A stretch of DNA of 64,000 nt from an uncultured Omnitrophica bacterium (GCA_947085655.1 CAMTXH010000014.1:9825-73824); one strand, 5' to 3'. Counted from the first letter of the stretch, positions 1 through 31,200 are shown. Numbers and translations: made by a program. The notes: a model not told the origin generated them from the sequence alone.

Positions 1-58
1 GGCCGAGTTGCCGAAGAGTCTAGGCAATTCGGCCATTTTTATTGGAGGAGGTTTTAAG

Positions 59-829: not shown

Positions 830-835
830 AGGATC

Positions 836-1681: not shown

Positions 1682-1691
1682 GGGTAGCGTG

Positions 1692-2015
1692 ATGAAACGG
1701 ATAACGCCTTTAACGATTTTGACGGTGAGTCTGGCAGCCCTCATTTCATTTTTAGGGATGACGGGTGCGGCATCGGCATTGGATGCCGCGATCGGACCCC
1801 ATCCGGGGCTTCAGAATGAAAAACAGGTTTCAAGACACCTTTATCACGACAAGGGGGGAGCCCGGCGCGTGATTCCCGGAAAGGACGTTGCGGTTGCAAA
1901 ACTGAACGGGATTCTCTTCCGGGAGACGATGCTGCGGCTCACCGCTCCGAACGCTTTTCAGATGAAACAGCCGATTCTTCCGGAGCGGCCGAATCCCCAT
2001 AGGATTGCGCAATAA
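1692..2015 (+). CDS. Small secreted protein, 107 aa, function unknown
   Basis: ATG at 1692 (in-frame GTG at 1689) sits 7 nt after GAGGG. N-terminus MKRITPLTILTVSLAALISFLGMTGAASA is a signal peptide. Begins immediately after the upstream stop. Confidence 0.5.
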   Translation: MKRITPLTILTVSLAALISFLGMTGAASALDAAIGPHPGLQNEKQVSRHLYHDKGGARRVIPGKDVAVAKLNGILFRETMLRLTAPNAFQMKQPILPERPNPHRIAQ

Positions 2016-2062
2016 TGAATGAAAAACTTGGCGGCGAGCGCCGCCAAATATGGAGGTGTAAC

Positions 2063-4030: not shown

Positions 4031-4051
4031 GCGCTGTCAGGAGGCATCTTG

Positions 4052-6766: not shown

Positions 6767-6767
6767 A

Positions 6768-9700
6768 ATGAAGAACAATCTTCTTGATCATAACCTGGAT
6801 GTCGCACGAATAGAGGAGCGGGACACCTCTATCCAGAAGTGGCAAACCCCTCGGTTGAAGCCGATTCTGGGGGCTTTGGCGCTTGTGGTTGCGGAGCTCT
6901 TTTTCGTGACACAGGTCGCCTGGGCCCTGGACTTGAATCATATCAATGCCTTCAAACGGCAGTTCCGGCAGCGGACCCTTGAGATGCAACGGATGATGCT
7001 TCCGCAACAGATGGATCGGAAACGGCAGGAACAGCAGGCGGCCCTTGACCGGAAAAACCTTGTGATTGAGAACTTCGGCAACACCGACTCCTCCTTCTTG
7101 GCGCTTGCGGATGTGGAAAGTCAGCCGCTCACGGAAGATTCGGTTCCGCGGCCGGTCTACCGGCTGGGGGAGGAGGAAAAGGATGACCGCAAGGTCATTC
7201 AACTCGCCCGCGGTCCCTTGGTCGGCGTTGAAGTCCTTGGGCGGACGACGGACGAGGCGGGTTTTGGCCATGTGACCTTACGAACCGAGGACGGCGCTCT
7301 GAAAGATGCCACCATCGGCTCTTCCTTATTTACGAAAGTGCCCGCCAAAGAGAAAAAACCGGTTGCGCCGGGAACCTATCTTGCCGAGGGCCTTGCCGGA
7401 GGAGCAGGTCTCCTTGAAGCGAGGGAGACTTTGGGCGGAGAACTGATTACGAGTCTTTCCCCCATCCTTCATATGAGGGAAGAGACACCCGAAAAAGCTT
7501 CCTTGCGCGAAACCATTCAAAGGCAAACCCAAGTTGCCGAATCAGAAACCGTTTTACCCGAAACTTCCAGTACCCTTCCGGTTGATATTGACACATTCAA
7601 AGACGAATACGGGCAGATTCCGGTGATCGATGCCCGGACCGGCAAGGCGAAGACCAGTTTTGAAAAATACATCGACAGTCTCTCCGAACTCTTCCATGCG
7701 GCAGGCCGCGCCGCCCTCAAGGCATTCCTCGAGGAGGCGGAGGAACTGGAGAATATCGAAAGGACCGATCCTGAAGCGGCGCGGATCGCCAAGGCCCACC
7801 TCACAGGAAAACGCGAACGGGACGGCCAAGAGCCACCGAACCCCGGCCAGCAGGATACCCCGAGAGACAGATTCCAATTCTCCAGTTCGGGCAACGCCCA
7901 GTTTGACGCCTTTCTCCAGAATCTGACGGAAGAAATGGAGAGGCGTCTTGCGGAAGGCCCGGAGACGACCAAAGATTCCTACACGTATGTGGCGAAAGAG
8001 GTCGGAGTTAAGTTTGATGCGGACGGGAATGTGGTCTCGACCTATACCCGTTATGTGAAAAAGACCTTCACCCTCCACCGCGGAGAACTCCGACTCATCG
8101 GACGGACCACCACAACCAATTATGAGAATGCGGACGGCACCACCGGCACCAAGGTGGAGATGGCCAAGTTCGGCTATGATGACCGGGGCCGGCTGGTGAC
8201 GCGGGATATTGAAATTCTCCTGAACGGCTTTGTCTACGACGAAGACCTGGAGAGAGTGACCGGACCATTTAACAATTTCCGGATGACGCTCCACCAGCAA
8301 GCGATTCGGGATGAGGAAGGCCAGATCGTTAAATTCATCTCTGTCTCCACGGTCGGGGACATCGAAAACCGCTACGTCCTTGAAATCGAAGAGCGCGACA
8401 CCGCCTACCAGAAGACCCGGTGGAAAGAAACCACCACCGTCACGAATCTCCGGACCGGAGAGGTCCGTACCACCGAGACCGAAGGACACGCCACCGGCTT
8501 TGACGACCAGGGCCGCGCCACCGGCTTTGAAATCAACGAACATGTCTTCGGCGGTCAGGATGATTACTTCCGGACGATCACGATCGAAGGGATCGTTTAC
8601 GGCAGAGACAACGAATGGGTGTCCTTCCGGCGGACCATTGAAACGGATGGCTTTGTCGGATTGCCGGACGGCGGCGGGGAGATGGTGCATCGGCGGGAGG
8701 TTTATGATCATTGGGTGGATTCCGAGACGGGTGACGCGATGATCACCACGAGAGTGTATGAAAACGGCGTATTGATTGACACCACCACTTACCGTCAGAG
8801 TGAGATGCCCGAATATATGGCCCTTTACCTGGACGGCCGCTTTGTCGCCCTGGCTCCTCTTCTTGGGATCAATTTCGAAACCTTTGTCAACGGCACTCTG
8901 GATGCCCAGAACTTCCTGACCGCCATGGGCATCAGCATGCCGCTTGAGACGCTGCTGGGTCTTACCGGAGACAGCGAGCTTGCGGCCGCTTTTGCCCAGA
9001 TGGACCCGGATGCAGTGGATGCGCTGGTCGCCGGTGCGTTGATGGCGCTTCTCTTTGAGGTGGTTAAGACTTACGCCGAGAATGTGGGACAGGATATCGC
9101 GGATGAGGAAGCGGAGAATCGGAGGACAAAGGTTATCAATAACTTTGTCGACAGGATGCCGGATCACCTCAAAGCGGCGGCACGTCAAATTGCCGAAAAC
9201 CTCTTTGACAATCTTGCAGACGTTCTGGCCGATATTCAGCAGGATCCTGCCAAGATGGATGCCCTGATCGGCCGCTTAAGGGATGCCGGTTTGACGGGCA
9301 ATCTCTCCAAGGTCGAACTCCGCTCGATGGGTTATACCGAAACGGTGATGTCCAGCACAAGCGACATCATCGAAAGGCGGACCGTTATCTTCGAATATGA
9401 CGAGGAAGGACGCATCTCCCAATCCCTTGAAAGGGTCCACCGCTTCGGGAGGGACAATGACGGAAAGGTCATTGACCAGACCTACAGCATCGAGCGCTCC
9501 GATTACCGCTACAGCGAAAACGGGGTCCTGATCGGCTATCGCGAAACCCTCATCGGCGTGAATGAAAACGGCGAAGTGACCCCCGGATTGAAAGTCGAAC
9601 GGGATGTCACGCCGGAATACGGCCCGGATGGCCGGCTCATCCGGATGACCTCGGTCAATACCTACAGCATCACCGATGAAAGAAGGGCGGAAGTCCAGGC

Positions 9701-12700
9701 CGGGATCGATGCCATTGACAGACGGGTCGCCGAAATCAAAGCGAAACTAAAAGGGAAAGTCGGTTATAAGGAACTCATCAAACTCCGGAACGAACTGAAG
9801 GTATTAGAAGAGCGGAAAAAGAGACTGGCAGCCGAGCGGGATGCCGAGCCCTTTACCCGGAAAACGGTTCAGGACCGGTTTGAATATGACGAGCAGGGGA
9901 ATGTGATCGGATACCGGCAGATCACGCGCGATGCGGAAGGGAACGTCGTCGATCATAACGAAGTCTCCGGCATCTATATCCATCCGGTCACCCAAAATGT
10001 GGTGAGGCAGATCCGGACCACCTATGTCCGGGACGGGGTGACGCTGGAAAAACCGGAGGTCCGGACCGAGTACAACAAACAGTACGACATGCGAGGCCGG
10101 CTCATCCGTCAGACGATTGAGCAGGATGGGAAAACGTTCGTCGAAGCATTCAAATATAATCGCCTCGATCAACTGATCTGGAGCCGGAATCAGCAGGGAA
10201 TCACCTCCAATTATACCTATAACCGAAGCGGCCAGGTGACCGGCTATGAGATGCACTTCTTTGAAGGGGAGACGAAATACGTCAAAGTTTACAATATCCG
10301 CTATGACGGATTCGGCCGGAAAGTCGGCGAAACCCGCCGGGCCTATATAGAAAATAAAGATGTGAAGGGCTGGCAGACAACCACCGTCACCTATGGGTAC
10401 GACCAACTCGGCCGGATTGCCTGGGAAGAGACCCACAGCGTCTTCAAGGGCAACACAAAGAAAGGTGACCACAAGGTCACCATCAAGGAGGGGTGGCGGA
10501 CCACCTACACCTACGGGCCCAACGGACAGGAAAAGCGCGAAAGGAGACTCTATTATGACCAGGAGATAAAACGGGGCTTCTGGGCGAATGTAGTCCACAA
10601 TCTCTTCGGCGGGTTTGTCTTTGATGCGATCGCAGAAATCTTCGAAGCGTTCGGGTGGGAGAAGGGCGCCAACTTTGTCCGTCAGATTACCCCGATTCTT
10701 CAGATGGTCGGCATTATGATCGCTGCCATACTCGCCGCGCCCTTCTCCGGAGGCCAGTCGCTCACCTTCGGCATGATGCTTGGGAACGCCCTTTTTGTGG
10801 CGGCCGTGACCGGTGCAGCCGCCTTCATGATGAATGTGGCAAACGGCATGTCCGTGAAAGATGCCCTTATCGCCTTTGCGAAGGGGCTTGCCCTCGCCGT
10901 TGTCACCGCGGGCCTCATGCAGGGGCTTGAAGCATTTGCCAGCGTCATCGATTCCATAGCGAGACTCGGGTGGGACATCTTGACCACGATTCCGAAACTG
11001 ATCGGCATCGCCCTGAAATTTGTGAAGGATGTCGGCACAAAGATTTATGATGCGCTGAATACCGCCTATACAAAGACTCTCCGGAAATTCATCGAGAAAT
11101 TCGGCGGAACCGCAGGGGCGACCGGTGGAATGATCACCCTTTCAACCGCCGGAAAGATTATGCAGGATGTGGTCCGGCAACTTGTGACCGCCGCCTTCAT
11201 GCAGATTAAGTTGCTCCGGGATTCCGACACCGCCAAGCTCCTCACCCTCTTCGCCCTCGGCGCCTACTTCGGAAATGTGGTGAATAGTTTCATCCTCCCG
11301 ATCGGACAGGAGATGATCCAGGGGAACAATCCGGAGGATATGGGTTATGCGGTCTATGCGCTTTATGCCTTTAACGTCGGGCTTCAGGCCTCTGGAGGCG
11401 ACTTCCTGAATCTTTTCCGGAATGCGGCGGGTGAACTGTCCGCTGTTGTCAGTAAAGGGGCCTTTATCGCGCAGTCGCTCTATCAGGCCCTTCAGGACCA
11501 GCTCCTTGCGGAACTCGGCGAAGCGCTCAAGCCGGATGTGATCCTCAAGACGGATGATTACGGAAACGTTCTTGAAAAGAAAAAAGGCGACCTTTCTCTC
11601 GGGGACAACATCTTAATTTCGATCGCCCGTTCCCTGACCGGCTACGAGATGTTCACCGCCATCCGCCACTTCACCTTCGGCAAGGGCCCCTTGATTGAAA
11701 AACAGGCGACCCCCGGCGGAAAATACCAGACTCTTCAATTCAATACCTTCGGCGATTTCCTGAAAGGCCGCGCCTCCCACATCGCCTTCTGGAGCGGCTT
11801 GCCGGATCCGGCGGATCCGAAAAAACTCATCTTCGGCTCCCAGCAGATGGCGATCAGCCGGCTGGGCGGTCAGACCCAAATTCAATACTTCAACAGCCTC
11901 TTTGAGGGGGGCGCAAAACCGTTCCGGACCGATCTCCTCAATCCGGGCGGCAAGTCCACCATTTCCCTTCATACGTATAAGCCGGACGGGACACAAGTCA
12001 CATACCGGACTGATTTCTTCCAAAACAATAAACCGGTTGCGACGGAACTTTATAGCGAAGATCACACCGTCCGGATCAACCACCTGGATAACACGGTGAC
12101 CGTTGTCGGACGCGGCGTCATACCGATACCGATTTACCCGATTTTCCCGTTTGTCCAATTCACATTCCCTCAGGCCATTGCCAATACCCAGCTGGACGGT
12201 CCCTTCCTGAGGATTCAGGGGAAGAACGGGGATATCGCGACGTATGACTTGAATAAAGTTATGGAGGGATGGGGGGAGAACATCGTTCCTCTGACAACGG
12301 CCACGTTTGACAAAAAAGGACAACCGACCTTTACCTATCATCCGGAAGGGCTTTCAGAAAGGACCTTTTCCTCCGAGGCCTTCCGGAATCAGCTTCCTGA
12401 AGCCCTCCGGGACGTGGAAATCACCAGGGACCGGCTCGATATCCGCTTCGGCACGCAGGTTTATGTTTATGCGGATAACGAGAAGAGCAAACTTCTCTTC
12501 ATCCACGACCTTGCTTCGGGATGGACGCTGGTGGAGGGACGGGAGAAAAACGATGTTGATCTCTATGTGAGTGCCGCAGGTGGGCCAAAGTCGGTCCGTC
12601 AATCCCTGCCGGAACTGTTCAAGCATATTGAACTGAATCTTAAAAATATCCAGATGCAGCAGACCGCCGCAGGACCGCTTCTGACTATTTTTGACGCTGT

Positions 12701-15700
12701 CAAGGGACAGGGAATCCTCTCGCTGGATCTGGAGGGAGGGGAACTGGCCGTCTCCTTCATCCATCCGCAGGGCCTTGAGATCGCCCTCGGTAACCAGACG
12801 GGGCAGGTCCTGCATGAGTGGAACGCGGCGCATCCTGAAAACCAAATTGATCCGAACCGCTTGGATGCGAATGCGGCAAAGAATCTCTTCAGTTTCTTCA
12901 GCGAAAAACTGAGCCAGCTCCAAAATCCGGATATGGATATGGCGGAGCGGGAGGTGCGGGTCAACCAGATCCGGCCGCTGGTTCAACTGCTCATTGCCAG
13001 GATGGGTGAGTTGGAAGGGCTTCTCGGAAGCGATGAGATCCAGACTCTGAAGAATAGCATAACCACCTTCTATCAAATTGCCATTCAGGTTGTGGAATAT
13101 AAGATAAGTGCCGTCCAAAAGACCATTTCAATCTTGAAGGAAAATGCAACCGGCCCCGGGGCTGCGGATTATCAGAACCATCTCCAAAAACTGGAAACTC
13201 AATTGGTTCAGGCGACAAATGCACTGACCCATTTGGAGGACTCCATCGATCAAAACCATTTTGATGCGGCGGATGTATTCCTTTCAAACGCGATGAACCT
13301 TCCGAGTCTTCTGACCCTACGGAGTGAAGCGGCGGGACTTCTTTACAAGCAGGGCGGGATCCAAGAGGGTAGAGTCAATGCCCTCAAGACCCTTTTGAAA
13401 CTCTATGAAGCCGAATTGAAAGAGGCGAGGAGCACAGCCGCTCCGGATACGACACGGATCGAGGATTTAACCAAGGCGATCTCTTACCTTAATTCCGCCA
13501 TCAACACCGGCCTGATCAGTCCTGAACTGCAGAATATTCTTTTGACTCCCCAGCGGAGAGTCCGGCTTCTTTTGTCACAGGCCCTTCCGGAACTGCTGAG
13601 GACCCAGGCGGCAGGAGGAGATATTACGAAACTAAAAGCAGACCTCCTTGCGAAGGCGGAAGAAATCAGTCCGGCATTCAGGGAGAGACTGGAAAACGTC
13701 ATTCGTATTTCTGCCGGCATCACCAGTCCGGAAATGGAGAAACTTTCTTCCGAAGCCCGGGCTGAAAGGGTTGTAAACATTACCCGGACCGAACTCATTC
13801 CGGCGGTGTTGGAGTTGAACCGATTCCTCGAGACGCAGGGGTATCTTTTGTATGCGGTGCCGTCTGCGGACGGCCGCAGGGTGGAAAGCCGTGTTCTGGA
13901 TATCAATGAAATCCGCCGGTACAAAATCACCCTCAACGGGAAAACGCATGAATTCCGCGTCTTCTTTGTGACCTATCCGGGGGCCGACTCGGGTGTTCCC
14001 GGCGGCGCCCTCCATGATCTTGAGACCCGGCTCAGCCATTACGGATACAGCATGGGGGATTACAATGTGGTTCTCCAGGATAACCTTGGCCGGTTTGTGG
14101 AAGTGATCAACGACTCAACCTTCAGGGATGTGGAAGGGCAGCGCCTTGAGGGCTTGGTCGCGGGCCAAGCACTGACCGTGGCAGGGTATCAGGTCATTGC
14201 AAACCTCACTGCAGACCACGAAGTGGGTCATGCGGTCGAGCGGCTACTCGGACATATTGATCCAACGGATGCCCCGGCACAGGAGACAGCCGCCTACTTC
14301 CGGGAATTGGCCGGCGCCGAAACATTCCAAGAGGCATGGGGATCGCTTAAGGATCTCTGGGGGATGGCCAAACATGGTCCGGAAGGGGCGCCTCATACGA
14401 TTGCCGCCCGAAACGTCTTACGCGCACTTTATACACGGCTGGCTCAAAAGGAGGGGGGAGACTTTAATGACCTCTCAACCCATCCGAAATTCCAAAGGGT
14501 CCTGATGCGCCTTGCGGAGGCGAACCTTGACGGATTCCGGTCTCTTATCGGAGAAGGGTACGAGGCCCACTTTGGCAGGGCATTGGTCCAGCCGGAACTT
14601 GAAGAGGGCTCTACCATCCCGAACCGGCCGGTCAGTCTTGAGGCGGTTGGGCTTGCGCTGAACACAGCGGACGACACCTTCATCACAAGGGCCGAAAGCG
14701 CCTACAACCGGCTCGGGGCATTTACCGACGACATTATTACTGCAATCAACAATAACGATTTGGATGCGGCCAAAGGGCTTCTCCAGTCCTCTGGGGCGTT
14801 TGTTACCGACATAACCGCCTTCTTCAACGAGGTCAGCTCGGTGATGGACGCGCTGAGTCATGTTCCCTCCAGCATCTTCGGAGAGCAGATGTCTCCGGAA
14901 GAAACGGCAAATCTGAGCCGGACCCTTCGTCAACTCGGGGATATTGTTGCCGAAGAGGAACTGACGCTTTCGCAAGCCCAGCGCAGCCCAACGCTCCGGA
15001 TGACGGATAGCGATTCTATTCCTGTGGCCGCGGTGGTGAACGCTGTGAATGCGGCAGAGGTGATCCATGAAGATGACACCATCACGAAACCGGGTAGTGT
15101 CAAAACAGCCGACGGCACATCGGTTAACTATAACGAGCACCGGCACCTTCAAATCCAGAATAACGACACCCAGACCCTCACAACGATTGACCGTTACTTC
15201 CAAGGGGAGAAACTTGTCTACCTTCAAGTGAGCGTCAAGGATCTGGTCACCGGCCGGATCACGAATTTCGCCTATACCGGAACGATGGAGTTGAACAAAT
15301 CGGGCGGGCTTAACCTGATTGATGCAAAAGTGTTCAGGACCTACACGACCCTCGCGACCCTGAACGGCGTCCGGCAAGAAGTTCTCATCGAAGAGATTTC
15401 CATTATAAAGGATAACGAACTCATCAGCTCGAATCAGGTCCTGAAGAGTCTCGAAGGGATTCCCCTTGGGACTTTGGATCCGCAAGAGCTCCAGAATCAA
15501 TTGAACGGAGTGGATGCCTCCGGAGCCGCTCTCCGGTTTACCGCGTTGGATGACCCGAAGAATCTCGGGGAGATCGAGGGCCTTAGGGGAAGAGAGAAAC
15601 TCCTGACACTTTATGAAGTGACCCGGACGGTTGAGACAGAGGAAGGGCCAAAGACAGAGACCTTCCATGTCCTTGCCAATGATGATTTCTCCGAGCAGTT

Positions 15701-18700
15701 CAGGGTGGAGATCACGCGTCAAGGGGATGCGATTCAGATTACCAAGGTCATTTATGATTCTGTCGTCGATCCCCTGACCGGCAATATCACTGTTCCGTTT
15801 GAGGTTCTTGAAAACGGAAAATTTGTGAGCGACCGGTTTGAATATGCAAGACTCTCCGATCCGAAGAACCTTGCATCGGCCGAACTCAAACTGAAGGCGG
15901 AAGGGTTCCTTGAAGTGAGCGGCCTTCATCTCTATAAACTCACCCGGATTCATGGAACGCAGCAGGTGGGGGAGGCCTCCTATGTCCTTGCAACTCAGGA
16001 CCTCTCGGAACAATACGGTATCCGGCTCGGCAAAAATGGACAGATTAAGAGTATCCAAGTCCAGTTTAAGACGGAAGGCAATAATAAGAAAGTCACTTCC
16101 CTTGACTTTGAAAACGGCGAATTTGTCGTTACAGAAAGATTCTTCGGACGGAAGAGTGCCGCAAATCTCTCCTCGGCTCAAAAAATCCCGCTTTTGGCAG
16201 GGTTCCATCTCTATGAGGTGACAGAGACGGTCAAATTGGCGAATGGGAGTATTCGCCGCGGAGAAACCTCCATGGTCATGGCGAACGACGATCTCTCCGA
16301 TATTTACGGCGTCACGATGGAAGGGAGACAAATCGAAGCGATTCATATCTCCTTCGAGCGCCATGCCGAGGGCGCCACCTCCCGCTCCTTCATCTTTGAC
16401 AAGGGACGCTTTGAAGATACGATCAGCAAATACACACTGTCAGATTTGGCCGTGGAGAAACTCCCCGAAGCGATTGCCGCCTTGAAAGCGGCCGAAGGTC
16501 TCAAGATCGAAGGGAAACTTTCACTCTATCTCCTTGAGCAGACGGTGGACGGCAAAAAAGAGGCACCGGCATTTGTGCTGGTGAACGATCAGTTTACGCA
16601 GCAGTTCGGTGTCTCGCTGAATGAAGAAAGGACCCGGGTGATCGGGGGTCAAATCTCCTTTGATCGGAAGACCCTGACCGGGCGCGCCCTCGTCCTCAAC
16701 GAAAAAACCGGCCAATTCGATGATGTCATCAGCCATTACACAAAACTTGATTTGGTGCTCGGGAATCTGCCGGAGGCGGAAAGACGGCTCGGTGTCGGAG
16801 CGCTTACCGTCTACAAACTCAACCGGATCGTGAACGGGGTGGAAGAGGATCCTTCCTATGTTTTGATCAATAGCGACTTCAACAGACAATACTCGGTAGA
16901 GTTGAACGAAACCCAGACAGAGATTACCAGGATCCCGCTCGGTTCCAAAAAGGATCCCAAGACCGGAAATATCATTGTGACCTCCCTGGATGTCATCAAC
17001 GGCGAATTCCACGACGTGGAGACGCATCATCTCAATACACTGTTTAACCGGAGGGATTTGGAAGTCTACCGCTCCAGAATGAGGGAAGCGGGATATTCGC
17101 CCGAGGACTTCACCCTTTACGAGGTGGTCAAATATATTGATGGCAAACGTCAGCCGCAATCACCGACTCAGCACAGTGCCGCCCTTCTTCCGGCCCACGT
17201 TCCGACTATTCCTCTCGCCAATCTCTTTGAAGCGGACGGCCGCCAGTTTATTCTTCTGAGCAACGACTTCAACAAACAGTACGGCGTGAACTTTAGGAGC
17301 GGAAAAATCGAATCACTCAATTTCCGGACCGAAGGGGAAAACGGCGCTTTTACCATTACCACCTGGACGCCGAATAAGAAAGGCGGCATTGACGAACATT
17401 TGGATCTCTACGCACCGGTCTTCTTTGATGAATCGAGTCTTGGTGTATTCAGGGATCGGAATGTGATCGGAAGCGACCAGCACACCCTCTACAAAGTCAT
17501 TCAGAAACTGAATGGTGCCGTCCAGGCAGATTTCCATCTTCTGGTGAATGAGGACTTCAGCAAGCAGTTTGTGGCAACCCTTGAAGGGGACAGAATCACG
17601 AGTCTCATGCTCCGGACAGAGGATACGGACACCTTTAAACTCACCACCTTCACATTGTCCGGCAATGAAATTATCGAAACCTCTGCTATTTTCAACAAAA
17701 AAACTGGCGAACTGATCCGGGTCGAAAGCCCCTACGCCGAACGGCTCCAGACGCTTGAATCGCTTGTCGCGCAGCGGGACTACCTGAACGCCCTGATTCT
17801 TTATCTGACCGCCTCCTCGGATGCGCGGGATACACCGGGGCAGGACGGGCGGGATGCGCAGGTCGTTCTCCATCGGCAGGAGTTGGCAAGGATCGAAATC
17901 CAAATTGCCGAGGCGCAGGATCTGGTGGCGGCGGATCTTCTGGAATCGCTGAAGGCGCAAGGGTATGACACAACCCGGCTCACCCGCGAGAATGTCGTCT
18001 TTGTCAATAATGACAGATCACCGAAACTGACTGTCGATATTACATCTGAAAAGGAGGTCGGCGGGCGGAATCAGGTCATCAAAATCGAACCGAACGCCAT
18101 CTTTGGAATTGATGCGCAGACCGGAGGATATGCGGTCCACACAGGCGTTCTCCGGGTCGGGAATCTCAAACTGGCCTACCGGGACTTTAATCCGGAAATA
18201 CCGGCGCCACAGGATGATCAGAAACCGCAGGCCGGCGAAATGGTCTCAACCGGCATCACCCAGGTCGAGTTAGATGTGGATGAAAATAATAACTACTGGG
18301 TGACCGGAAGGATTGAAGTAAAGGACTTTGCCCGGCTTTTGGTGGTCCCCGGCTCGCGGATCGCTCTGCTCGGCAATCAGCAAGCAATCATTCTTGGAGA
18401 TACTTTTGACCCAGCCACCTCCGAAATCGGCCGGGTGATTGTGATTGAATTTGACAGCCGCCTCGGCGAAGACGGGAAAACGCCTATCGGCGCGGTGGCA
18501 CGGGATATTACGGGAGAGGTCCTTGCCGCACAAGAGACATTCCGGCAGAAGCGGACGATGCCGCAACGCTATAGCGCCGGATTCGATGGTATGGTGGATG
18601 ACGAAAGAGCCGCGGCTCCCAGATTTGACAGTGACGTTGCCCCTAATTTCGACATTGTCCCTTCCGACGCGGGGACAGGAAGAGAACTCAACACCGCCCG

Positions 18701-21700
18701 CGAGTTGGTCAATGCCAATATAGGAGGCGACACCGTAAGAGCGATGCCGGTCCTGGATGCCTCGATCGGGCGGATTTTCGTTCAGGCGATGAAGGTTGTT
18801 TGGGGGAATGTTGTCATCCGGCTTGGAAAGGAGTTCCATAATAGAGGGTGGATCGAGTCAGGCGAGGCACTCGCCAGGGAAGGACAGATGAACCAGGCGG
18901 TTCTTGGCGGGCCGTGGAAACAGGCATTGGCAAAGCCCGGCATTCTCCCGGCCATTACCTCTTTCCTCAGCGGATTTGCCTTCTTTGCACTCGCCATGCC
19001 GCAGTTTATCGCTGAATTTGTGGGCAAGCCCTGGGAGCTCATCAAGAAAACACTCGATCCCAACTCACCCGATTTTATCCTGACTTCGATGGCGAGAACT
19101 TTTGCGCAGGATCTGAAGACGAATGTCTGGTTCGGGCTCGGTGAACTGGCGGTCTTCGGCGCTTCGTTTGCCGTCGGCGGTTTCCTAAAGGGTGCGGGCC
19201 TGTTCCGGGTGATGAAGCAGGCAGCAAAGGCCCACAATAGACCTGCTTTGGCGGCGAGGGCGCTTGGTGAATCGATCACTGCAGGCGTTTCATACGGTAT
19301 CCGTTCGGCTCTCATGCTTCCGGTGCACCTGGTGACCTTCCCGATTACAATGACGCTTGGCATCATCGGAAAAGGATTACAGTTTGCCGGCGTCATGCGG
19401 CTTGGGAAGCTATTCAACGCATTGGGCGGCAATGCCCTCCGTTCTTACCTTGCTAACTTTTCCCTGAATCATCCGATTGCCTTTGTCAGAGCAAACGGCT
19501 TCTTTGGAAATGTTTCCGCTTTCATGAACCAGTTCCGCTTTGCCGATGCAAGCCCCGAGCGGCTTCTGGAGAGTCAGGCCGAGGCGTATCTCTTGCAAAA
19601 GACCGCGGCGGAGATGCTGAAGGGGGGCAATAATTGGATTCAGAAGAAAAGTTTGCAGCTTGCCCTTCAGCACTTCACCAAACAGTTGGGCCGGATCGAT
19701 ACGGCGATTTTGCAACTGGCAGGACAAAGAGGCGAACTTGACAGACTCATCGATCTTGGTTCCGGCAGGGGGAATGAACTCTTCGGTCAGCGGATCTCCA
19801 ATCTTGAACCGCTTGCCAACCTGATGCAGAGGGCCGCCAACTTTTATTTCGGAGAGCTTCTAAGGACGGCAGGACACGCCGAATCCGTCTCTGTCTTTGG
19901 TGAACTCCTTCAAAGAGGGATGATGCCGGAGACGATCCGGGAAGCAGTCCTCGACGCCCTGAATGGCGGAGGCGCGGGCCCGAGAAGAATCGCCGGCATT
20001 GAAATTGTGAATACCAGTGTGCTTCGCGGCATCTTAAACCTTGCACAGAAATTTAACAATACGCTCCGGCTTCCGGAACGGGTCCAGCAACTCGCCTTTG
20101 ACCAGTTTGTCTATGAAATGGTCCGGACGATGCCCGGTTACAGCCCGCAGGATATTCGAACCATCATTGACGGGGAGGGAAAACCGATCGATCTTCTCCT
20201 TCCGGGCGGCGATGCAAACTATAGCAGAGTCTACCGGACTGTCCGGCTTTCCAACGGCCAAGAAGTCGAGGTAACCCCGGTCCGTTTGGCCGCGGCAAGA
20301 AGGATTTATGAAGTACAGGGTGAGCGGGCGGCGAATCTTCTTTTTGAAGGGCTCTTTAGAGGGCTCCGGAATCCGGCTGAAATCCTGAACCGGTTGAATG
20401 CTCTCGGAAAAATCATCTTTGACCCGGCCAATTACGGAAAGACGTTAAGGGAAATTCTTCCGGCTGAATTGATGCCGCGGCTTCTCCGTGGGTCGCCCCT
20501 TGCCGACTATCGGCTGACGCCTCAGAGCCATTTGTTTAAACTCCTCCATACCAAACTGGAGAGCTACAATAGCCGTTTTGGCAATAAACCCTCTTTGTTC
20601 AACCTTGGAAATCCCTATCGGGACTTCTGGAAACCGGTGACCTCCACCAGCAGCGGAAAAAGCGCCCCCGGTGAATATGGAGGCACCCCGGAGCAGGTCC
20701 GGACACAGTTCGAAAGCCAGATGAATGCGGCCGAGAATCATCGGGCGAAGGCCAAGGAGTGGGCGAAAGCAAATGGCGTTCCCGAATCCCAAGCAGAGGC
20801 CAAATGGCTCCGGTCGGAACTGAAGCGGGTGAAACTGACCGGAAGAGAAATCCGGCACGCGGTCCGGCAGTATCGTCAAAATCCGGCCGGGTTACAAGAA
20901 TTCCTGAACGGACTTCGAAGGACCGAGCTTTTGACACCGGATGGCCGCGTTAATCCCGAAGGGCTCAGGAATCATGCGCTGGCGGAAGTCGTCGATCTCC
21001 TTGTCAATGTCTATCCCGATTTTAAACTTGACCGGAGGGGCTCCGGTGACCAACTCACCTTCCTTTATTTAATTACAGAGCGTGATTTCCTCCGGTTAAA
21101 CGGAGAAAGCGTTCCGACAGCCCTTCTCCAGTTGGTCCAAGGAGGCGGAAAAACACTCGGTGTCTTAATCGGAAAAGAGGCCGCTTACTCGCTTCATCTC
21201 AAACAGAAACCGAACGCCTCCTTCCATGACCTGATTGTGACCTCCAGGGATCAGTTGGCTTTCCAGTATTTCAAGGAAGGATCCCTTGAACGGAGGGTCA
21301 TTGACCATATGCGCGATACACTCGGAGTCGAGATCCGGAATGTCTCCTCCAAAGAAGTCCAAAACGTGGAGAACATCGGACCGGTCGGTCCCCGGAGTCT
21401 CCTCGTTATGGATAACTATAACTTCAAACGGCTGAGCATGAGTCTCACAAAACTCTACCAGGAGAAGGAAGCGCTTCAGCCGAAGCTCCTTGCCAAGGAG
21501 AAGGAGATTGAGATAGCCGGACAAGACCTTCGGGCAACAGAGGCACAATACCGGGCGAACACGGGACGGAATATCCCCTCCCTTTTGGATGCGGCTTCCG
21601 AGTTGGGTACAGCGAGGAGGACGGTGGTCGGCAGACAAGCAGACTGGTACCAGATTGCAACCCGGCTAAAGGAAGTGGAAGCCAAGATCGAAGATCATTA

Positions 21701-24700
21701 CCTTGCAAAAGTCAAAAAAGAAGGTGGCACCCTTTTTGACGAGATTCAGGAGGCACTTGCCGACTCGGACCTTATTGAAGGGCCGGGGGGCGCTCTCCTT
21801 GAAACTCAAGACCCGACGAAAATCGAGGGCATCCGGGCGGATATCCGGGGCCGGATCAAAACCTTCCAAGCGCTTCAGGAGGAATTCTTAAGGACGGATA
21901 ATCCTTACGATGCGATTGAAAATGTCCTTCATGGCCAGAGGCGCGTGCGGGGCCAGTACCAGTTTAGAGCCGAGGTGGTCCAAAGGGTCTCTGAGCGGTT
22001 GAAACACGATCCGGATGTTGCCTCACTCGGCGAGCGGGGGAGGGGAAGCGAGTTTGAGCAATTTGCCGATGCGACGGCCAATGCCCTCATGTACCGGGAG
22101 GGAACCGATTACTTTATCAGAGCAAGGGGCGAGGCCCTTCGGTATTCCACAGGGCGCTTCGGCGTCAACCAACTGGAGACGGTCTTCGGAAACCGGGAGC
22201 TTGGCACAGCGGTCCTCATCAAAGAATACCTGAATCCCGAAAGAAACTTTGTCCGTGCCGGCGAGAGTGTCAATGCCATGGCAAGACGCTTCACGACAAA
22301 CGAAAGCATTCTCAACAGCATTGCCGATAGCTATCTCCACCATGAATTCAACCGGACCACCACCTTGAATGCCCTTGCCTTGGTCGGGCTTGAAAAGACG
22401 ACCTTTGTGACCGGAACAAGCAAAGGGATCCGGCATACCCTTAAGAAAATCGGTGCTTTAGTCTACGCAATCCAGAAGGAATCGCCGATTAAGTATCAGG
22501 AGAATTTGGAGCATGTCTTGGAAGTGCCTGTAGCCAATGAAGGCGACTCGATCAAGGAAGCAGTCAAGCAGGTGAGAAAGGCGCTTGCTGCAAATGCAAA
22601 AGGGGTCAAGATCGTGATTACAGGCGCGGATGGCGCACTTCTTGCGCAGATTCGTGAGGCACTCATCAAGGCAGGCCTCGGCGAACAGCTTCATATTACA
22701 AGAATCCGCGGACAGAAAGGAAGCGCCCATATTACCACAGCGCTTGATGCGGTCCGGAAGCGGTTTGAAAGTCATCCTGACCAGAATCACCTCATCTTGG
22801 TTCCCGATTTTGGCGCCGGGTCCAACCTCTTTGCTTTCATTGAGAATGTTCTCACGGGGGAAAAGATGCCCGGATCTCTCAAGCCGACCATCATTGAAAT
22901 GGGTCTCCGGGGCGAAACCCACCGGCAGCAGCTGGGCGCCCGGATGAACGGCGTTATCAGAGCCGATGTCCAGGGACGTGAAACCGGACGCTTCATCACC
23001 ATTATTAATGAACAGGGCCGGGAGCTGACCGATACCGAGCGGGTAACGCTTGGCCGCATCACCGACCCGGCCAAGCGGGAAGCTTTCTGGAGAGACACCT
23101 CCCGGAGAATGGACCGGGAGATTGATACCCAGAATGTGGTCCGGGTGGTCCAGGTCTCCCTCACGCATGCGGAGAGACGTCTGGTTGAGCACCGGATTTA
23201 CGACCGGGTGGTCAAGGGAGCGCTCGAACGGTCCAAGCGGAGAGCGGAAGTTTCGTTTGAAGAGGCGGTTAAAAATATCACCCAATTTAGAGAAGCACTT
23301 GAAAAACTCGGCATCCCTGTCCTGCTTATCCCGGACGTGGTGAACGCCATTCAAGGGTTCCGGCTCGGGAATCATCGCCTTCTGGACGAGGACGGGAACT
23401 TTACAAAAGAGGGGACCGCATTCCTTCGGCTCATGGATGACCTGATTCAGTTCGATGCTTCGCATGAACTGAAGGAGGACGCTCTTGCGCTCATCGCCAG
23501 CGCAAAGGTCTCTGTGGTCGACAAGCTCCGACAATTGAATGGGGCGGCAGCGACCCTTAGAGAGGCACCGGAGAAATATGCGGCGGATGTGGCCTTTATC
23601 GCTTTAGGGTGGATGGAATATGCGAATTCCTCGGATCCCTTTATGATGGACCCGTTGAGTTTTGCCGGGGCGCGGAATGCTTTCCGGGAGACCTTCAACG
23701 AGGCACTTCTTGCGGTACTCGAGGTTCTTCCGGATGCGATGGCCGAGGATCTGACAGATGAAGAATTCAATGTTCTCTTCGAGGAACTGGTCACCAAGAT
23801 CAAAGAGGTACAGAAGAGCCATAAGGATGTCCCTGCCTTCATGCTGACAGAGAAATTTACTGAACTGGTCCTTGCCCGGATTGACCGCGCCTTGGCAGGG
23901 AATACCTTATCCCCGATCGAGCGGGAGCGTGCGGAACACCTCAAGGGGGCCATTACCGAGCTTTCCGGAAGTCTGATGAAAACGGTGGATGGCAAAGAGG
24001 AGCCGAAAAGTTTTGAAGAGTTTATGTTCACCATGATGCAGATTGCGGCGAAACCGGAATATCCGGAAGTCTCCGCACTCGACCTTTTAAGCGCCATGCA
24101 GCCCTTGATGAGCCACAGCAAACGGGAACAGGCCGGGCATGCGATGGATGCCCTCGGACAGGTGGTGAAGGTCGGCCGGCTCGAAGAACTCGGACTTAAG
24201 GAAGCGGTCCTTGCAAAAATCAGGGAATCCACGAGAGGCGAAAAGATTGATACGGTAGCGGTGCTTCAAAGAGGGCTCACAACGAACGTTCTTGCCGGAC
24301 GGAATTTCCTTCTTGTTTCGCATCGGCCCACCCTGACCGGGAACGGGATGGTCTATCAGTTTGGCACGAGTCCCCTTCAGTACCGGGAGGAAGACGATCG
24401 GCTTATCCTGACAGGGGATAGCCGGGGAACGCGCACGCCAACCGGTGAGCTGGTCAAGGAACCGCCTGTCAAGAAAGTCGCTGTGAGGGAGATTGAGGAT
24501 GAAAAAGTACGGGCTGCCCTCGCGGCTCGCGGCCTTGGGGAAGACGGCGCCGTCCGAGTGGTGAATTACGAAAAAGGCCTCCTCACGGAAACGTATTACC
24601 TTGCTCCGGAGGCGGATCGCATCCTCCATGCAGCGGTGGATATTCCTCTTTATACCGAAGACCTTGCAAGGAGTCTTGGGTTCCTCTTCCCGGGTGCAGG

Positions 24701-27700
24701 AGCACTCAAGAAGGGCGACCGGCTCCTGGTGCATAATTATTACAAAGAAGGAGAAAATCTGGTCCAAAGCGCTGTTTTCGCAAGGGACTCCCTGGGTGGT
24801 GAAAGAAAAATCGGACAGGTTCGGGTTGAGCAGATGCCCTTGAGAGAGTTCAGATTCAGCACCGTACCGGGCCGGGAGAGTCTCTACAGAAGACTCCTCC
24901 GTCACGGCGTTCATTCGGACCAGACGGTGGCGATCCGGACTTTCCAGGATCATCTCGGCAATGATCTGAGCGATGTGGGCGGGGAGAAAATCCTGCATGT
25001 GAGCGCCATTCAAGCGGGCAATGCCGCCCTTCCGACGACGGCGCGCCATCTCTTCGGCAGAGCCGTGACAAGCCAGGTCTCCACCGAAGAGCGGAAGCCC
25101 GGACTCCTTGTGATGGAACTTGACTTCATGCAGAAGGACTCGATTGACATGCGGAACGACTCGCCCACCGGAGAAGTCGAGAATTTTGAAAGTCAGGTCA
25201 GCATCAACTATCATCCCGGGCTGATGGACGCCTTTGAAAACCGGTTCGGATTCGACCCGGAGAGCAGCCATACCGTTGCAGGCGTTGACAAGAAACTCTA
25301 TCTATTCCTCTCCCTCTTTTACCGGATGAATATCCACGAGTTCCGCGGACACCTACGGTTTGAGAGCCCCGTCCTGAAAGAGGCAGTGGCAAAAGAACTG
25401 GGTCTTACATCACGCATCCTGACGGAGGATCTCCTGAAAGAAATTTTGGCAAAGAAGGATCAACTCGGAATCACGGTGGTTCCATCCGAAGCGCGTCCCG
25501 GCATCTTGGAAATCCGGCTTCGAAACGGGGATGTTTTGGTCGGGTTGGATGATTCCAACAACATTGCGACGCTCGGCACGGAATTGACGGATGCAAACGG
25601 GCGCTTCAGCGGATTCAAGCATTTTGACAGCCACGGCTCCTACAAGATTCAGACCAGCGAGCGGATCGCGGAGACTCTGAGCGGCGCGCATTACCGGGCG
25701 ACCGATCATGCGGCCCGCTTCATGTGGTTCTTCGGTCTGAAGCAGGAGCAGCACAGCGCTGACCGGATTGACCAGAATATCGAGGAGATGGTCCATCGGT
25801 ACGGTGCGCGCGAGGCGGATGATTATCTCTCTCTTATTCATGATCCGGTATTGAAGGAAGATGTGAAGCATGTGACCAAGCGCTTCAGCGAGGGCCACTT
25901 CAAATCACTTGATGAACAGAGAACACACCGCCTGGCGCGCTACTACGGGGTTGAGCCGGAGCGTTCCCTGACGCCTCCTGAGCCGCCCAAGACCCGCCTT
26001 GAGAGCGGACATTCCATCCTGGATATTCCGGCGATGGTTCCGATGATCATGTCGATCGGTCAGGGTCTGATGGTCGTGGACCGGGGAACCTACGATAGGA
26101 TCAAAGGCGATTATGAAATAGAGAAACTGGCCGATCCGAACTCGCCGTTTGTGCGGGTGATGTCCCTTTTCTTTGAAACAGACACGATTGATTTGGGCAA
26201 CCTTCAGAGTGCGGTTGAAGCGCGGCTTAGCCGACTCGGAGAGCTTTCCATTGCGGATCGTCGCGCCCTCTCCGAACGGCTGACTTCACTCTACCAGGTC
26301 ATTGAAGGGGCCCGGCTCCTTGCCTCCGCCTTCCGGTCCGGTCCAACCGCTGAGCGGGATGCCTTGGTCTATGAAGTGGGGCAGGCCCTTGAAGCGCTTA
26401 TCCGGCAGGTTGCGCACATTGAGGTGGGTGAGGGGATGTTGTTTGAGACAAGATCGTTACTTTCCGCCCTCCGGACCTTTGCGCTCATCTTTAGGGATGA
26501 CAAGGCGTTTGGGCAGGCGTTTAACCGGATGGCCTTCTTCTTCGACAAACAGGGCGGACGGCTCCTGAATGACAGGGAGCTTTCGGCACTCATCCGGAGC
26601 CGCGGAAAGAATATCTTCGACGGAGGCGCATTCCCGATCGAGAAATTCGTTACGTTCTATAATGAAATGTTGAGCCGGGGCATCAAACCGAACGAGGCGG
26701 AACAGGCAGTTTTAAGCATCCTCACGCTGAAAGACCTCATCGACCGGGATCTTAAGACGGGTCGTTACTTTGTCAAACACCCGGAGAATCCCGGCTCCAT
26801 TGCCGCATTCGACCGGAGCAAATCAAGCGATGAATCCTCGTTCATCCTCGCTGTGCATGAAATCATTCATACGTTCCAGCATACCCATAAGCCGCTCATG
26901 GATGCGTTGAGGAACTACCACCGATCGCTTGCCAATCGGACAGTGACGGTTCAGGGGAAAGCCATGAACGGTCTTGAGGTTGTGAAGATGGTCCTGAGCG
27001 CCAACGGAGAATATAAAACCAGCGATCCGGAACTTATCGTGAGAGAATTCCACGCCCACTTCCGCGAGCCGCGGCAGTTCCTCGGGAAGTTGCAGGGCAA
27101 GCTTGACCAGAATGCCCGTCGCTTTATCGAAGAGATCCGGTTAGAGCTGAGACAGCTGGAAGCGCCGTTCCTTGCGGAGGTGCTGGGTGTTGCAGGAGAA
27201 GAGGCGGCAGCGGCTGTTCGGGATGCAGGGGTCAAAATCACGAATTTTGAGTCGATGCAGCATACGGGCGGCCAGGAACTCAAGACACTTCCGCTTCTTC
27301 CGGGTGCACCGCCAAAACCGTCGATTCCGATGTCGTTCAATTTGCCTAAGATCAACATAGGCCTTGAGGTCATTCCGGTGGATGAGGATAATGACGACCA
27401 GTTTGTGTTCGATGGCAATGTCGTTCAACTCGCATCAGTCCGTTCTGCCAAACGGGCCTTTGCTCAGGAAGGACCGGTGGCGACGGAGCAACCGACGCGG
27501 ACGCGGTGGGTGGAGGAGGCAGAGGCGAAAACCGCTCAGGCAAAACCGGTTCAACTGAGCGAGATGCGGCCCAAACAGGAAGCGGTCCCGCCTGAGATGC
27601 GCGAATGGTTCGTCGTCGGTGAGATTGCCAGAAAAAGCGGCGGCATTCCGGCCGAGGGACGGAAAACCATCCAGAAAATCCTCCGGGCGAATCCCGAGGC

Positions 27701-28256: not shown

Positions 28257-31200
28257 GTGAAAAATTCAGAAGAAAAAAGTCCAGAAATCAAGGGACGATT
28301 TCCATCTTGGTTTAGACCTCTTGCCTTCATTGTGGTCGAAACCTTTTTATGGACGACTCTCTCTTTTGATATTGCACTCGCCTTTGAACATCACGCCGCC
28401 GTTCATCTCCGCCCGAAGGCCTCCACACTGAAAGACGGCGGAGTGAAGGGACTCCGGGAAGCGCTCCGCGGAGAGGAACTTTTGGACTTGCCTGCCGAAC
28501 CCTCGGTCGCTGAGGACGGTGCCCGAAAAGGAAAGCCGTTCCGGGGAAAATATCCGACCCTCCACTTCCTGCACCGACCCAGCGAAACCGGCGGTCTTGA
28601 ACTGTCCGGTTTCGAAACGGACATCATGAAGATGGCCATTGCACCGAGCGCCGGCTCCAATGAAGGCCTGTCATTGAGCAATGAAGAGGCCGCCGCCTTC
28701 TTCCGCTTTGCGAGAGCGGTCGGTTTTGAAGACCTCATGATGATTCAAAATATGAATGACCGGCTTAACCGGGTACCGGAAGGAGACCGGAGGCGGCTTC
28801 TTCAGGGTGCTGTTCCAAGTCTCAAGAAAAAAGTCGTTCCTGTTCTTCCCTACGTTCTCAATCCCTTCGATGAGGGACTCGCCGAAATTTTATTGAGCGG
28901 AACAGAAGAGTTGAATTATTCCCTCCAGAGCCGCTTGAGCGGCGCGTTTGCCAAGGCAAGCGAAGTCAAGGGAACACCGGTAGAAAAATTAGCCCATCTT
29001 AGAAATGAGCTTTTGGAAGAAGGGGACCCCTCCAAAGCAAGGCTGCTGCGCATCCTCGAATTGATCGCAGAGCTCCAGACACCGGAGGCCAAACGGAAGG
29101 CCATCGTGGCCTTCACCGCACGGTATCTTTTCTCCGTGGAGAATAGCTTGCAGCTTGTGAAAATTTTTGGGCTTGCGGAAAGGGGATCGGAGACCGCTTC
29201 GGACGGCGCCAGAAAAACCATTGAGGGGGGCTATCCTTCGTTTGAGTACATGCATCAGCACTTCAGCCCGGCCGAACTTGCCCTTGTCCGCTTTATGATG
29301 CATCCGGATGCGGCGTTTGACCTGCAGGGTCGACTGAGCGTTCCGGAAATCCTCTTCTTTTTCAAAGCACTCCATGCGGTCGGTTTTGAGAATCTCCTTC
29401 TGATTCAAAACGTGGAGAAGGAACTTGAACAAACGGCTTTGCAGAAGAAAGAAATCCAAGAAGCGATTCATGGACTTCAGGCAAAAATTCCCCCTTTGCT
29501 TGAAAAAGTCACCTTTTCAGGCAAAGCGACAATCGGTTTAAGCAGTATCTTGGCGACCAGAACCGAAACGCTGGACGATGGCGTGAAACATCGCCTCCAA
29601 AAGGTCCTCGGGATGATTCAGAGGGCCAACGACCGATTTGCGGTTCAGACCGTGGACGATCTTCGCGAAGGTAAGATGCGCCTTCCGGATTCCAAGCCGA
29701 ATCAGCGGCTTATCGCGATTCTCCGTTTAATTGCCGACCTCCCGACCGTTCCTGAAAAAGAGAAAGCGGCCGTCGCTTTTGCCAAGCGCTTCCAATTGGA
29801 TGACCAAGATCTTTTTCACCTCCAAAGGGTTATGGGCGTCTCGCGAGTGATGTCCGGCCGGCTTCCGAACGAAGAGCAACTCAGAAAGGGGCTTAACCGT
29901 TACATCCGCCTTTTGATTCTTTCTGTTTTGAGAAAGGGATCCCCTGCGAAAGTGCTGGCGAAACCGACACTTCGCGATTCCCAATTCAGCGACGAGGAGA
30001 TCTCCCAATTTCTGGTGGAGGCCTATCAGCACCCTGACCGGCTTGTTGAAACGGCACGTCGTCAGTTTGAGGAAGCCCGGGCAGGACTTGTGCAAAGGAT
30101 TAGTCCAGAGGATCTGCGGGGATATGAACATGCGCTGCTTCAGATGGGTCCGGAGATTCGCGGCTTTTTGGAGCAGTATGCCTTGGTCTCTCCGGAAGGA
30201 ACAGAGGGAAGAGCCGCTGTTGCATCCCGTGACCGCCCGCCTGTTTCTCCTCTAGAACCGGAATCTCAAACTGCTGAAAGCAGCGGGCCGCTCAACGAGC
30301 TGTTGTCGGTCATCCGCGATCTTTTTGTCCAGGAGATCGGTTATCCGCTCCCGAATGACGCACTTGAACTTTTCCGAAGACCGCTGCAGAAAGGGCAAAT
30401 CACCCCGGATCAGATCATCTTTCAAATTACGGAATTGAGCGACCGGCTGACCGACAAAGAAAAAAGAGCCCATCAGGGAGACCGGATTTATTGGGTTCGG
30501 TTTGCAAAAGAGGCCATTGCCATCGAACCGATTACCCTGATCCAGCATGGAAAAACCCCCTCTCTCAAAGGGGTGCCCTATCAAAAAGAGCTTTATGAAT
30601 TGATGAATCGGGGTGCCATCACCAACACCCAGGCCTACTGGACCAAGGCGCTCATCCGGCATGCCGGCTTTGATCCGAAAAAGCTGGGCGCCGTCCTCCC
30701 GGCCGAAAATGGGAGCAGGCGGTTTGTGGACTTTGGAGCGCTTATCTCGGTTTTGGAGGCAGCGGGTAGCGGCAAATACACGGATGAGACAAAGGCGAAC
30801 ATTGTGTACGATTTCTTCCGGCATATTGCGACCCGGGAATCCAGAAAGGAACACTTTGAGGATCCGCGCACCCCCCTTCATTTATTCGGCGCACTCTATC
30901 CTTTTGTGGAATCCAACGTCCACGCATTTATTTACGAGGTGACGGAGGATATCACAAAAGGGGAAAAGCGTTTTCTCTATGACCCCGAAGGAAAACTCCT
31001 TCCTCCTGAAAAGACGGATGAGGTCGTTCAAAAAGTCTCCCGTTTGCTTGCCGGCAAAGGAAGAAAACTGAAGCGGGTGGATCAGTATCTGCTCGGGCGT
31101 GTCGTGAAAACTGTCCTCACAATGGACTACGAAAAGGGCCCCTCTGAGAGAACCCGCGACGGCGGCACCCGGCTGGCGAGTCGGGCGAGAGGACGCCTCA

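Follow-up and report, generated by a model that had tools for sequence, protein, structure and literature searches.

Proteins of the RHS, Tc and teneurin type carry YD repeats that form a shell, and this shell is closed by a conserved RHS core with the signature PxxxxDPxGL ... DPxGL, an aspartyl autoprotease. In the prePAAR Rhs effectors of type VI secretion, transmembrane (TM) helices are reportedly located at the N-terminus; they precede the shell, are chaperoned by Eag proteins and occur together with PAAR, a canonical Rhs core and a toxin. TM helices are numerous in giant Omnitrophota proteins (West-Roberts et al. 2023, bioRxiv 10.1101/2023.11.21.568195), and 94% of the long proteins from this phylum contain a signal peptide or such helices, which take up about 2% of the residues (Nielsen & Lui 2026, bioRxiv 10.64898/2026.06.07.730766). 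Antiparallel beta-helix tubules that resemble RHS, with helices interspersed on their exterior, are also described in the giant-protein papers. Here we analyse a 64,000-nucleotide (nt) stretch of DNA (the window; GCA_947085655.1 CAMTXH010000014.1:9825-73824) from an uncultured Omnitrophica bacterium, which contains G1, a giant open reading frame (ORF) of 7,085 amino acids (aa) in which YD repeats run directly into a block of hydrophobic helices (block 1). On balance, and by a slight degree only, we favour the interpretation of G1 as a giant envelope protein stitched through the cytoplasmic membrane, with block 1 serving as a multi-pass anchor between exported modules.

G1 resembles the giant Omnitrophota proteins in being an ORF of several thousand amino acids (kAA) with an N-terminal signal or helix, in having clusters of TM helices (four plus three) between long unannotated modules, in the alternation of RHS-like beta strips with helices and in its extreme sequence divergence. 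Its locus also shares with them the presence of carbohydrate-binding and ABC sugar-transport genes, which lie downstream in the syntenic locus of another genome. By hydrophobicity scales, about eight helices of 20 residues account for 2.3% of the 7,085 residues, and a topology of this sort is usual among giant Omnitrophota proteins. However, G1 is shorter than these proteins, the corpus-wide topology screen of Nielsen & Lui 2026 having been applied to those of at least 10 kAA, and SecA_DEAD, C39 or S8 peptidase, dockerin and TSP3 domains were not found in it, even when it was scanned as pieces of 550-800 aa. In addition, part of its strip consists of true YD repeats by Pfam and TIGRFAM, whereas in the giant-protein papers the likeness to RHS is one of structure only. 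This recognisability of part of the strip at the sequence level, together with the direct contact of the strip with a helix bundle, is mildly new.

The only Pfam family exceeding its cut-off in G1 is RHS_repeat (PF05593; cut-off 22 bits), which matches five stretches in aa 1029-1290 (40.2 bits, E=4.2e-10; residues are counted from the ATG at 6768, in a frame that is open without interruption over 6750/6768-28025). The NCBIfam model TIGR01643 (cut-off 15.8 bits) scores 30.3 bits on the piece aa 1001-1290. Upstream of this region the signal fades: RHS_repeat reaches 15.7 bits (E=0.021) in aa 850-1029, under its cut-off, TIGR01643 has no match at E<=10 on the piece aa 400-1011, and neither model matches aa 400-700 at E<=10. 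The size of the scanned piece matters, as pieces of about 2,400 aa gave no Pfam match and only 14.4 bits for TIGR01643, below the cut-off, and smaller pieces separate the signal. With a motif hidden Markov model (HMM) made from the six clearest YD copies, G1 yielded no more than nine copies, each located before aa 1263, and the proteins o2 and o4, which are encoded upstream, yielded weaker ones. Judged from these matches, the YD content of G1 comprises about 245 aa of bona fide repeats and about 100 aa of marginal ones, the rest being YD-like by eye only. Thus, of the approximately 870 aa of bona fide YD repeats claimed in the initial annotation, which had been made from the sequence of the window, the part at aa 1029-1290 is upheld by HMMs, while the preceding part is either sub-threshold (aa 850-1029), unmatched (aa 400-700) or occupied by helical inserts.

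The search for homologues of the YD region returned none, hence no alignment was available for AlphaFold, and the single-sequence model of aa 400-1290 has a mean predicted local distance difference test (pLDDT) score of 41.6, so that its secondary structure alone was used. With this low confidence, the model contains three beta-hairpin patches (aa 403-677, 866-968 and 1029-1265) parted by two helical inserts, and a continuous strip of the kind that makes a closed shell would be broken at aa 683-839 and 970-1024. Its top PDB match in Foldseek is the Rhs core 8qja_D (E=5.7e-7) with a TM-score of 0.06, which indicates local similarity of hairpins and not a common shell. The other Foldseek matches, of this model and of that of aa 1262-1640, were given no weight.

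Scans against Pfam and NCBIfam with E up to 10 revealed no RHS-core, plug, teneurin or Tc accessory family in G1, a motif search found no DPxG[LWMI] anywhere in the protein, and phmmer searches of PDB sequences across all of G1 gave nothing relevant. The claim that the YD region is closed by no canonical RHS core therefore withstood HMM scans and motif search alike. Compared with the RHS, Tc (TcB-TcC) and teneurin proteins, G1 shares YD repeats above curated HMM cut-offs and a local Rhs-core likeness in Foldseek. It is unlike them in having no RHS core, autoproteolysis motif or plug, and its repeats are few and interrupted; where RHS cocoons have a short C-terminal toxin next to the repeats, G1 has about 240 aa of hydrophobic or amphipathic helices and then 5,500 more residues. 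The teneurin set (type II anchor, EGF, TTR, FN-plug, NHL, YD shell, ABD and Tox-GHH) is not matched by G1, in which RHS_repeat is the single family over the Pfam cut-off. The teneurin-like order proposed initially is correct insofar as an N-terminal helix is followed by YD repeats, but it is superficial, because teneurin, Tc and RHS accessory domains were not detected and the helix is a leader common to the neighbouring proteins.

The last YD-like motif of G1 is RRLYYDQEIKRGFW (aa 1259-1272, nt 10542-10583). It leads through an amphipathic helix into the hydrophobic helices, whose core begins at most about 35 residues after the motif, and the direct transition noticed at first is thus confirmed. 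The 300 aa of hydrophobic helices assigned to this place are present in part: they resolve into a three-helix core of about 90 aa, a charged loop of 98 aa, one more helix and several weaker ones. The mean Kyte-Doolittle value of the 90-aa window aa 1309-1398 is 1.32, compared with a mean of 0.72 and a maximum of 1.33 in 300 shuffles of the protein, and only 5 of its 90 residues are charged, fewer than in every one of these shuffles. Windows above 1.6 are not enriched in G1 as a whole (7 versus a shuffle mean of 7.8); what is non-random is their clustering and lack of charge. The AlphaFold model of aa 1262-1640 (pLDDT 40.9) is all-helical, with helices of 20-60 residues (20-32 in the core), and helical periodicity exceeds strand periodicity in block 1, so the block is predicted, at low confidence, to be helical and not beta-structure. 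The Kyte-Doolittle and Hessa-type ranges of ABC-permease helices from a related metagenome-assembled genome (MAG) overlap those of the block 1 helices, which on these sequence scales are plausible but marginal membrane spans.

G1 is an orphan at the sequence level. For block 1, a word-indexed search of 5.8 billion clusters yielded no homologues, a full phmmer search over 1.84 billion representative proteins recovered only G1 itself, and no relatives were seen in scans of genome and metagenome contigs. Likewise, no PDB entry was similar to the block, and Foldseek gave no match at E<=0.001 for the model of aa 1262-1640. This orphan status limits every inference about G1.

Several lines of evidence argue for the anchor. 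The even number of helices (three plus one) places both large flanks of block 1 on the same side of the membrane. The distribution of charges agrees with the positive-inside rule, as the loop between helices 3 and 4 contains 14 Lys/Arg, and the loop that follows the fourth helix, GQEMIQGNNPE, contains none. The core is statistically extreme, charge-depleted and predicted to be helical, and its scores fall within the ABC-permease range. The neighbouring giant ORF G2 has a similar leader and bigger polytopic blocks, and the published giant proteins of Omnitrophota have such a design. Of the two possibilities raised initially, a multi-pass anchor between extracellular modules is thus favoured by the helix count, the Lys/Arg-rich loop, the blocks of G2 and the literature. 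The other, a membrane-inserting payload, is unsupported: it is weakened by the absence of a core or cleavage motif, by the approximately 5,800 aa that follow the last YD motif, by the extent of the repeats (about 245 aa) and by the occurrence of polytopic blocks in G2 without YD repeats.

What is observed is where the helices lie and how they are composed, how far the YD repeats reach, that no RHS core is present, and in which taxonomic and syntenic setting the gene stands; the path of the chain described next is inferred. The N-terminal leader would carry the first 1,250 or so residues over the cytoplasmic membrane. This exported part would form a divergent RHS-like strip of beta-hairpins with helical inserts, of which the last 245 aa or so are recognisable as YD repeats. 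Rather than a closed toxin cocoon, this strip would most likely be open or form a tubule, as predicted for other giant Omnitrophota proteins. Block 1 would then act as a four-helix anchor, in which TM1-TM3 (aa 1306-1392) are followed by a basic loop of about 100 aa on the cytoplasmic side and by TM4 (aa 1491-1512). The anchor would hold the YD strip at the membrane by its end and send the chain back outside, where the next 2,500 aa or so, including about seven tandem repeats of about 100 aa, would be located. Finally, a second hydrophobic block of three helices (block 2) probably takes the last 2,900 aa or so to the cytoplasmic side. The coordinates of these elements are given in Table 1.

A number of observations weigh against this interpretation. 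G1 lacks SecA_DEAD, C39, dockerin and TSP3, which define the published classes of giant proteins. With a simple Hessa-type sum, no window of G1 falls below 0 kcal/mol and the helices of block 1 range from +1.5 to +3.5; the helices of G1 were called from simple hydrophobicity scales only, and both AlphaFold models are of low confidence (pLDDT 41.6 and 40.9). Homologues against which the conservation of the helices or of the YD-to-helix junction could be checked were not found. The most basic loop of block 2 lies between its helices 2 and 3, which misfits a simple out-in-out-in path and makes the topology ambiguous there. The placement of the window in Omnitrophota is based here on one named homologue and on synteny, and not on marker genes.

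Table 1. Features of the giant ORF G1 and its giant neighbour G2, with nucleotide positions counted from the first letter of the window
Feature	Position (nt)	Strand	Residues (aa)	Description and evidence
G1 giant ORF	6768..28025	+	1-7,085	7,085 aa from ATG 6768, 0 Cys; ORF list and public gene call of equal length
N-terminal leader of G1	6846..6935	+		basic residues, hydrophobic helix with central Glu (ILGALALVVAELFFVTQVA), then AWA-L
Predicted beta-hairpin patch 1	7974..8798	+	403-677	YD-like by eye, without HMM support; AlphaFold DSSP strands, pLDDT <50
Predicted alpha-helical insert	8814..9284	+	683-839 (157 aa)	DSSP helices, pLDDT 40-60; sequence reads helical
Predicted beta-hairpin patch 2	9363..9671	+	866-968	weak YD motifs FEYDEEGRI and YGPDGRLI; best-modelled part, pLDDT 60-90
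Predicted helical hairpin or coiled-coil insert	9675..9839	+	970-1024	model helices 571-595 and 601-625, pLDDT 70-90
Bona fide YD repeats	9852..10583	+	1029-1272	RHS_repeat and TIGR01643; end in RRLYYDQEIKRGFW
Acidic amphipathic helix	10584..10658	+	1273-1297	between last YD motif and first hydrophobic helix; sequence and hydrophobic-moment profile
Hydrophobic core of block 1	10683..10943	+	1306-1392	three Gly/Ala-rich helices, proposed TM1-TM3; Kyte-Doolittle peaks 1.97, 1.74, 2.01
Amphipathic loop	10944..11237	+	1393-1490 (98 aa)	14 Lys/Arg versus 8 Asp/Glu; helical moment 0.5-0.65; proposed cytoplasmic
Fourth hydrophobic helix	11238..11303	+	1491-1512	proposed TM4; Kyte-Doolittle 1.55
Weakly hydrophobic or amphipathic helices	11337..11537	+	1524-1590	tail of the 300-aa block as first annotated; probably not membrane-spanning; hydrophobicity and moment profile
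Hydrophobic block 2	18942..19385	+	4059-4206	three helices; Kyte-Doolittle peaks 1.92, 1.58, 1.83
G2 giant ORF	28257..46559	+	6,100 aa	0 Cys; leader of the G1 type; three larger internal polytopic blocks

An alternative is that block 1 represents a latent pore-forming or translocon-like module, which would be kept soluble or shielded as long as the RHS-like strip has not touched a prey or host cell and would then insert into the target membrane, by analogy with the translocators of type III secretion systems, colicin-type hydrophobic hairpins and the TM helices at the N-terminus of prePAAR Rhs effectors. Amphipathic helices flanking marginal hydrophobic ones are typical of conditionally inserting toxins, and in block 1 Gly/Ala-rich helices of marginal hydrophobicity (the Hessa-type values of +1.5 to +3.5 given above) are flanked by strongly amphipathic ones, a likeness to SseC/SipB/YopB translocators and colicin pore domains. 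The block directly abuts the YD strip, and Omnitrophota are described as predatory or episymbiotic. However, no significant likeness to pore-forming translocators or toxins was detected: the sole family match, SseC (PF04888; E=7.7, 6.4 bits), is noise, colicin Ia was matched by Foldseek at E=7 on a low-confidence model, and similarity at a significant level was seen neither in PDB searches nor in Foldseek. The comparison with prePAAR Rhs effectors extends to the combination of an Rhs/YD element and hydrophobic helices in one polypeptide, but PAAR, Eag, a canonical core and a toxin were not detected, nor were genes of a type VI secretion system in the window. Moreover, some 5,500 aa of chain follow with no recognised cleavage motif, the positive-inside pattern suits ordinary co-translational insertion, and blocks of this kind are also present in G2, which lacks YD repeats. 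A latent pore is therefore unlikely.

It is equally unlikely that block 1 stays out of the membrane, as a soluble all-alpha domain whose hydrophobic core is rich in Ala and Gly, in which case G1 would have its N-terminal signal only. Such a domain would agree with the absence of windows below zero on the Hessa-type scale and with the number of Kyte-Doolittle windows above 1.6, which does not exceed that of the shuffles; West-Roberts et al. also call TM prediction in giant proteins unreliable. Against it stands the 87-aa stretch with about five charged residues, a content lower than in all 300 shuffles. The succession of three helices, each of 20-30 residues, then a basic loop and one further helix is a pattern typical of membrane proteins, and the scores overlap those of permease helices in the related genome.

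The RHS-like strip may also be imagined as an open hollow tubule welded onto the four-helix bundle, the two forming one conduit or a spring-loaded membrane-inserting device that bridges the membrane of an Omnitrophota predator or episymbiont and the envelope of its prey. We regard this as a long shot. If true, it would be considerably more interesting, since YD repeats would be used without a core, cleavage or an encapsulated toxin. The least probable reading is that aa 400-1272 form a closed cocoon of the RHS/teneurin type with a non-canonical plug and the hydrophobic helices as encapsulated or extruded cargo: RHS_repeat and TIGR01643 above their cut-offs, the Rhs core 8qja_D as top Foldseek match and about 630 aa of beta-hairpin sequence in total are offset by the lack of an RHS core, DPxGL, an N-terminal plug and teneurin accessory domains, by a TM-score that marks the similarity as local, by HMM-detectable repeats of only about 245 aa in a strip broken by two long helical inserts, and by the 5,800 or so aa that follow, which are far beyond the capacity of a cocoon as a rule of thumb from Tc and Rhs structures.

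If the favoured reading of G1 as a membrane-stitched envelope protein is correct, G1 would be an unusually small and tractable giant of this kind (7 kAA versus 30-150 kAA) and could serve as a model for the insertion of such proteins. It ties the predicted RHS-like tubules of Omnitrophota to sequence-detectable YD repeats, and this tie suggests RHS repeats, stripped of core and cargo, as the ancestors of the tubules. On present evidence, a new principle of toxin delivery is not revealed by G1.

The second hydrophobic block, annotated initially at 18900-19530, was recovered within that interval and is real but weaker than block 1. The composition of G1 shifts at this point, being net acidic and rich in Thr, Ser, Asn, Gly and Tyr before block 2 and near-neutral after it, which is weak evidence for the proposed path of the chain. 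Homology of block 1 with block 2 or with G2 was considered and rejected, as BLAST found nothing.

The polytopic blocks of G2 have their hydrophobic peaks at aa 3752-3890, 4980-5160 and 5355-5500; they are larger than those of G1 and occur without any YD repeats. A PG_binding_1 domain in G2 (about aa 1054-1127, E=4.9e-10) implies periplasmic exposure, and the leader and polytopic blocks of this protein point to an architecture shared within the locus. Near its C-terminus G2 weakly matches CTD2 of ABC-3C systems (22.4 bits, below the cut-off), and its last 100 or so residues resemble the C-terminus of a 1,720-aa protein (35% identity) encoded in a locus of GCA_016206785.1. This locus contains the closest named homologue found, that of o7, annotated as 'MAG: carbamate kinase [Candidatus Omnitrophica bacterium]', and is syntenic with the window at 46.5-64 kb, the identities being 37% for o5, 46% for o6, 69% for o8 and 73% for o9; genes for sugar ABC transport follow there. 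The o6 and o7 genes (50948-55915 and 55922-60271) encode Cys-free proteins of 1,449-1,655 aa with an export-type leader that contain metabolic enzyme domains, namely DUF4954/left-handed beta-helix with an amino-acid kinase in one of the pair, whereas its partner contains a complete acyl-CoA dehydrogenase. The placement of a flavoenzyme would be odd if these proteins are truly exported.

The hydrophobic helix of the G1 leader (aa 33-51) has a Kyte-Doolittle peak of 2.17. The leader aligns with those of G2, o5, o6 and o7 and of the Omnitrophica proteins P0003 and P0004, and it probably serves as an export signal or a signal anchor. Because the leader ends in an AxA-type site and is common to four neighbouring proteins, its helix resembles an export signal more than a type II anchor. 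In all five proteins (leaders at 6846-6935 in G1, 28257-28450 in G2, 46566-46760 in o5, 50948-51150 in o6 and 55922-56100 in o7) it consists of a basic stretch, a hydrophobic helix of about 20 aa and an AxA-like site, with Glu or Gln at the centre of the helix (VVAELFF, VVETFLW, MVAQAFV, LVTELFL and ILIETFLL). An LR(P/A)(K/R)(A/S) motif follows in four of the five, and several of these four also have DGG. The leader is kept in P0003 and P0004, and may represent a lineage-specific export signal. A prepilin-type leader was rejected by eye, there being no Gly before the helix and no Glu at +5.

The same five proteins, encoded at 6768-28025, 28257-46559, 46566-50735, 50948-55915 and 55922-60271, contain no cysteine in 17,678 residues combined. 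Their neighbours o2, o3, o8 and o9, which have ordinary signal peptides, have 16 in 2,119 aa. Cysteine is likewise absent from P0003 (1,629 aa) and the 1,720-aa protein mentioned above, and P0004 (2,256 aa) has one. Exported proteins are commonly devoid of cysteine, and its absence from the 7,085 aa of G1 was counted toward the exported, envelope reading. Neither giant-gene paper mentions cysteine (West-Roberts et al. 2023; Nielsen & Lui 2026). The Cys-free set with its common leader may tell more about the export route of such proteins.

The window matches a contig of the MAG GCA_964374045.1. Two public gene calls, P0001 and P0005, on contigs of 73.8 and 76.8 kb, have exactly the 7,085 aa of G1; they differ from each other at three residues, and the copy in the window is identical to P0005. 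An origin of G1 by recent DNA or tandem duplication or by repeat expansion was rejected, as a DNA repeat search of the gene was negative. At the protein level, about seven tandem repeats of about 100 aa are found at aa 2920-3660 or so (window 15525-17747), with the motif LY(E/K)(V/L)...(V/L)L(A/V)N(D/E)DF(S/N)(E/K)Q(F/Y), of which a strict regular expression finds five copies at intervals of 97-226 aa; the repeats escaped both DNA repeat finders and BLAST at E<=1e-3. G1 also contains two HExxH motifs, ADHEVGHAVE at aa 2484 (14217-14231) and AVHEIIHTFQH at aa 6697 (26856-26870), and a P-loop-like motif, QGGGKTLG, at aa 4792 (21141-21155) in the predicted cytoplasmic part, which is reminiscent of the divergent SecA-like domains reported for giant Omnitrophota proteins. 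Metalloproteases at the former and a SecA-like ATPase at the latter were rejected, neither having support from HMMs or the PDB.

Upstream of G1, the secreted proteins o2 (836-1681) and o4 (4049-6766) bear degenerate YD-like motifs, for example YYDEQGRVSR and FVYDEAGNVIGYDQT in o2, where RHS_repeat scores 12.9 bits, and YDKEGNVIGAKTR and YDDFGRIHEV in o4, where RHS_repeat gives no match. Translational coupling of o4 and G1 is suggested by the spacing of the two genes, the G1 start codon coming one base after the o4 stop codon.

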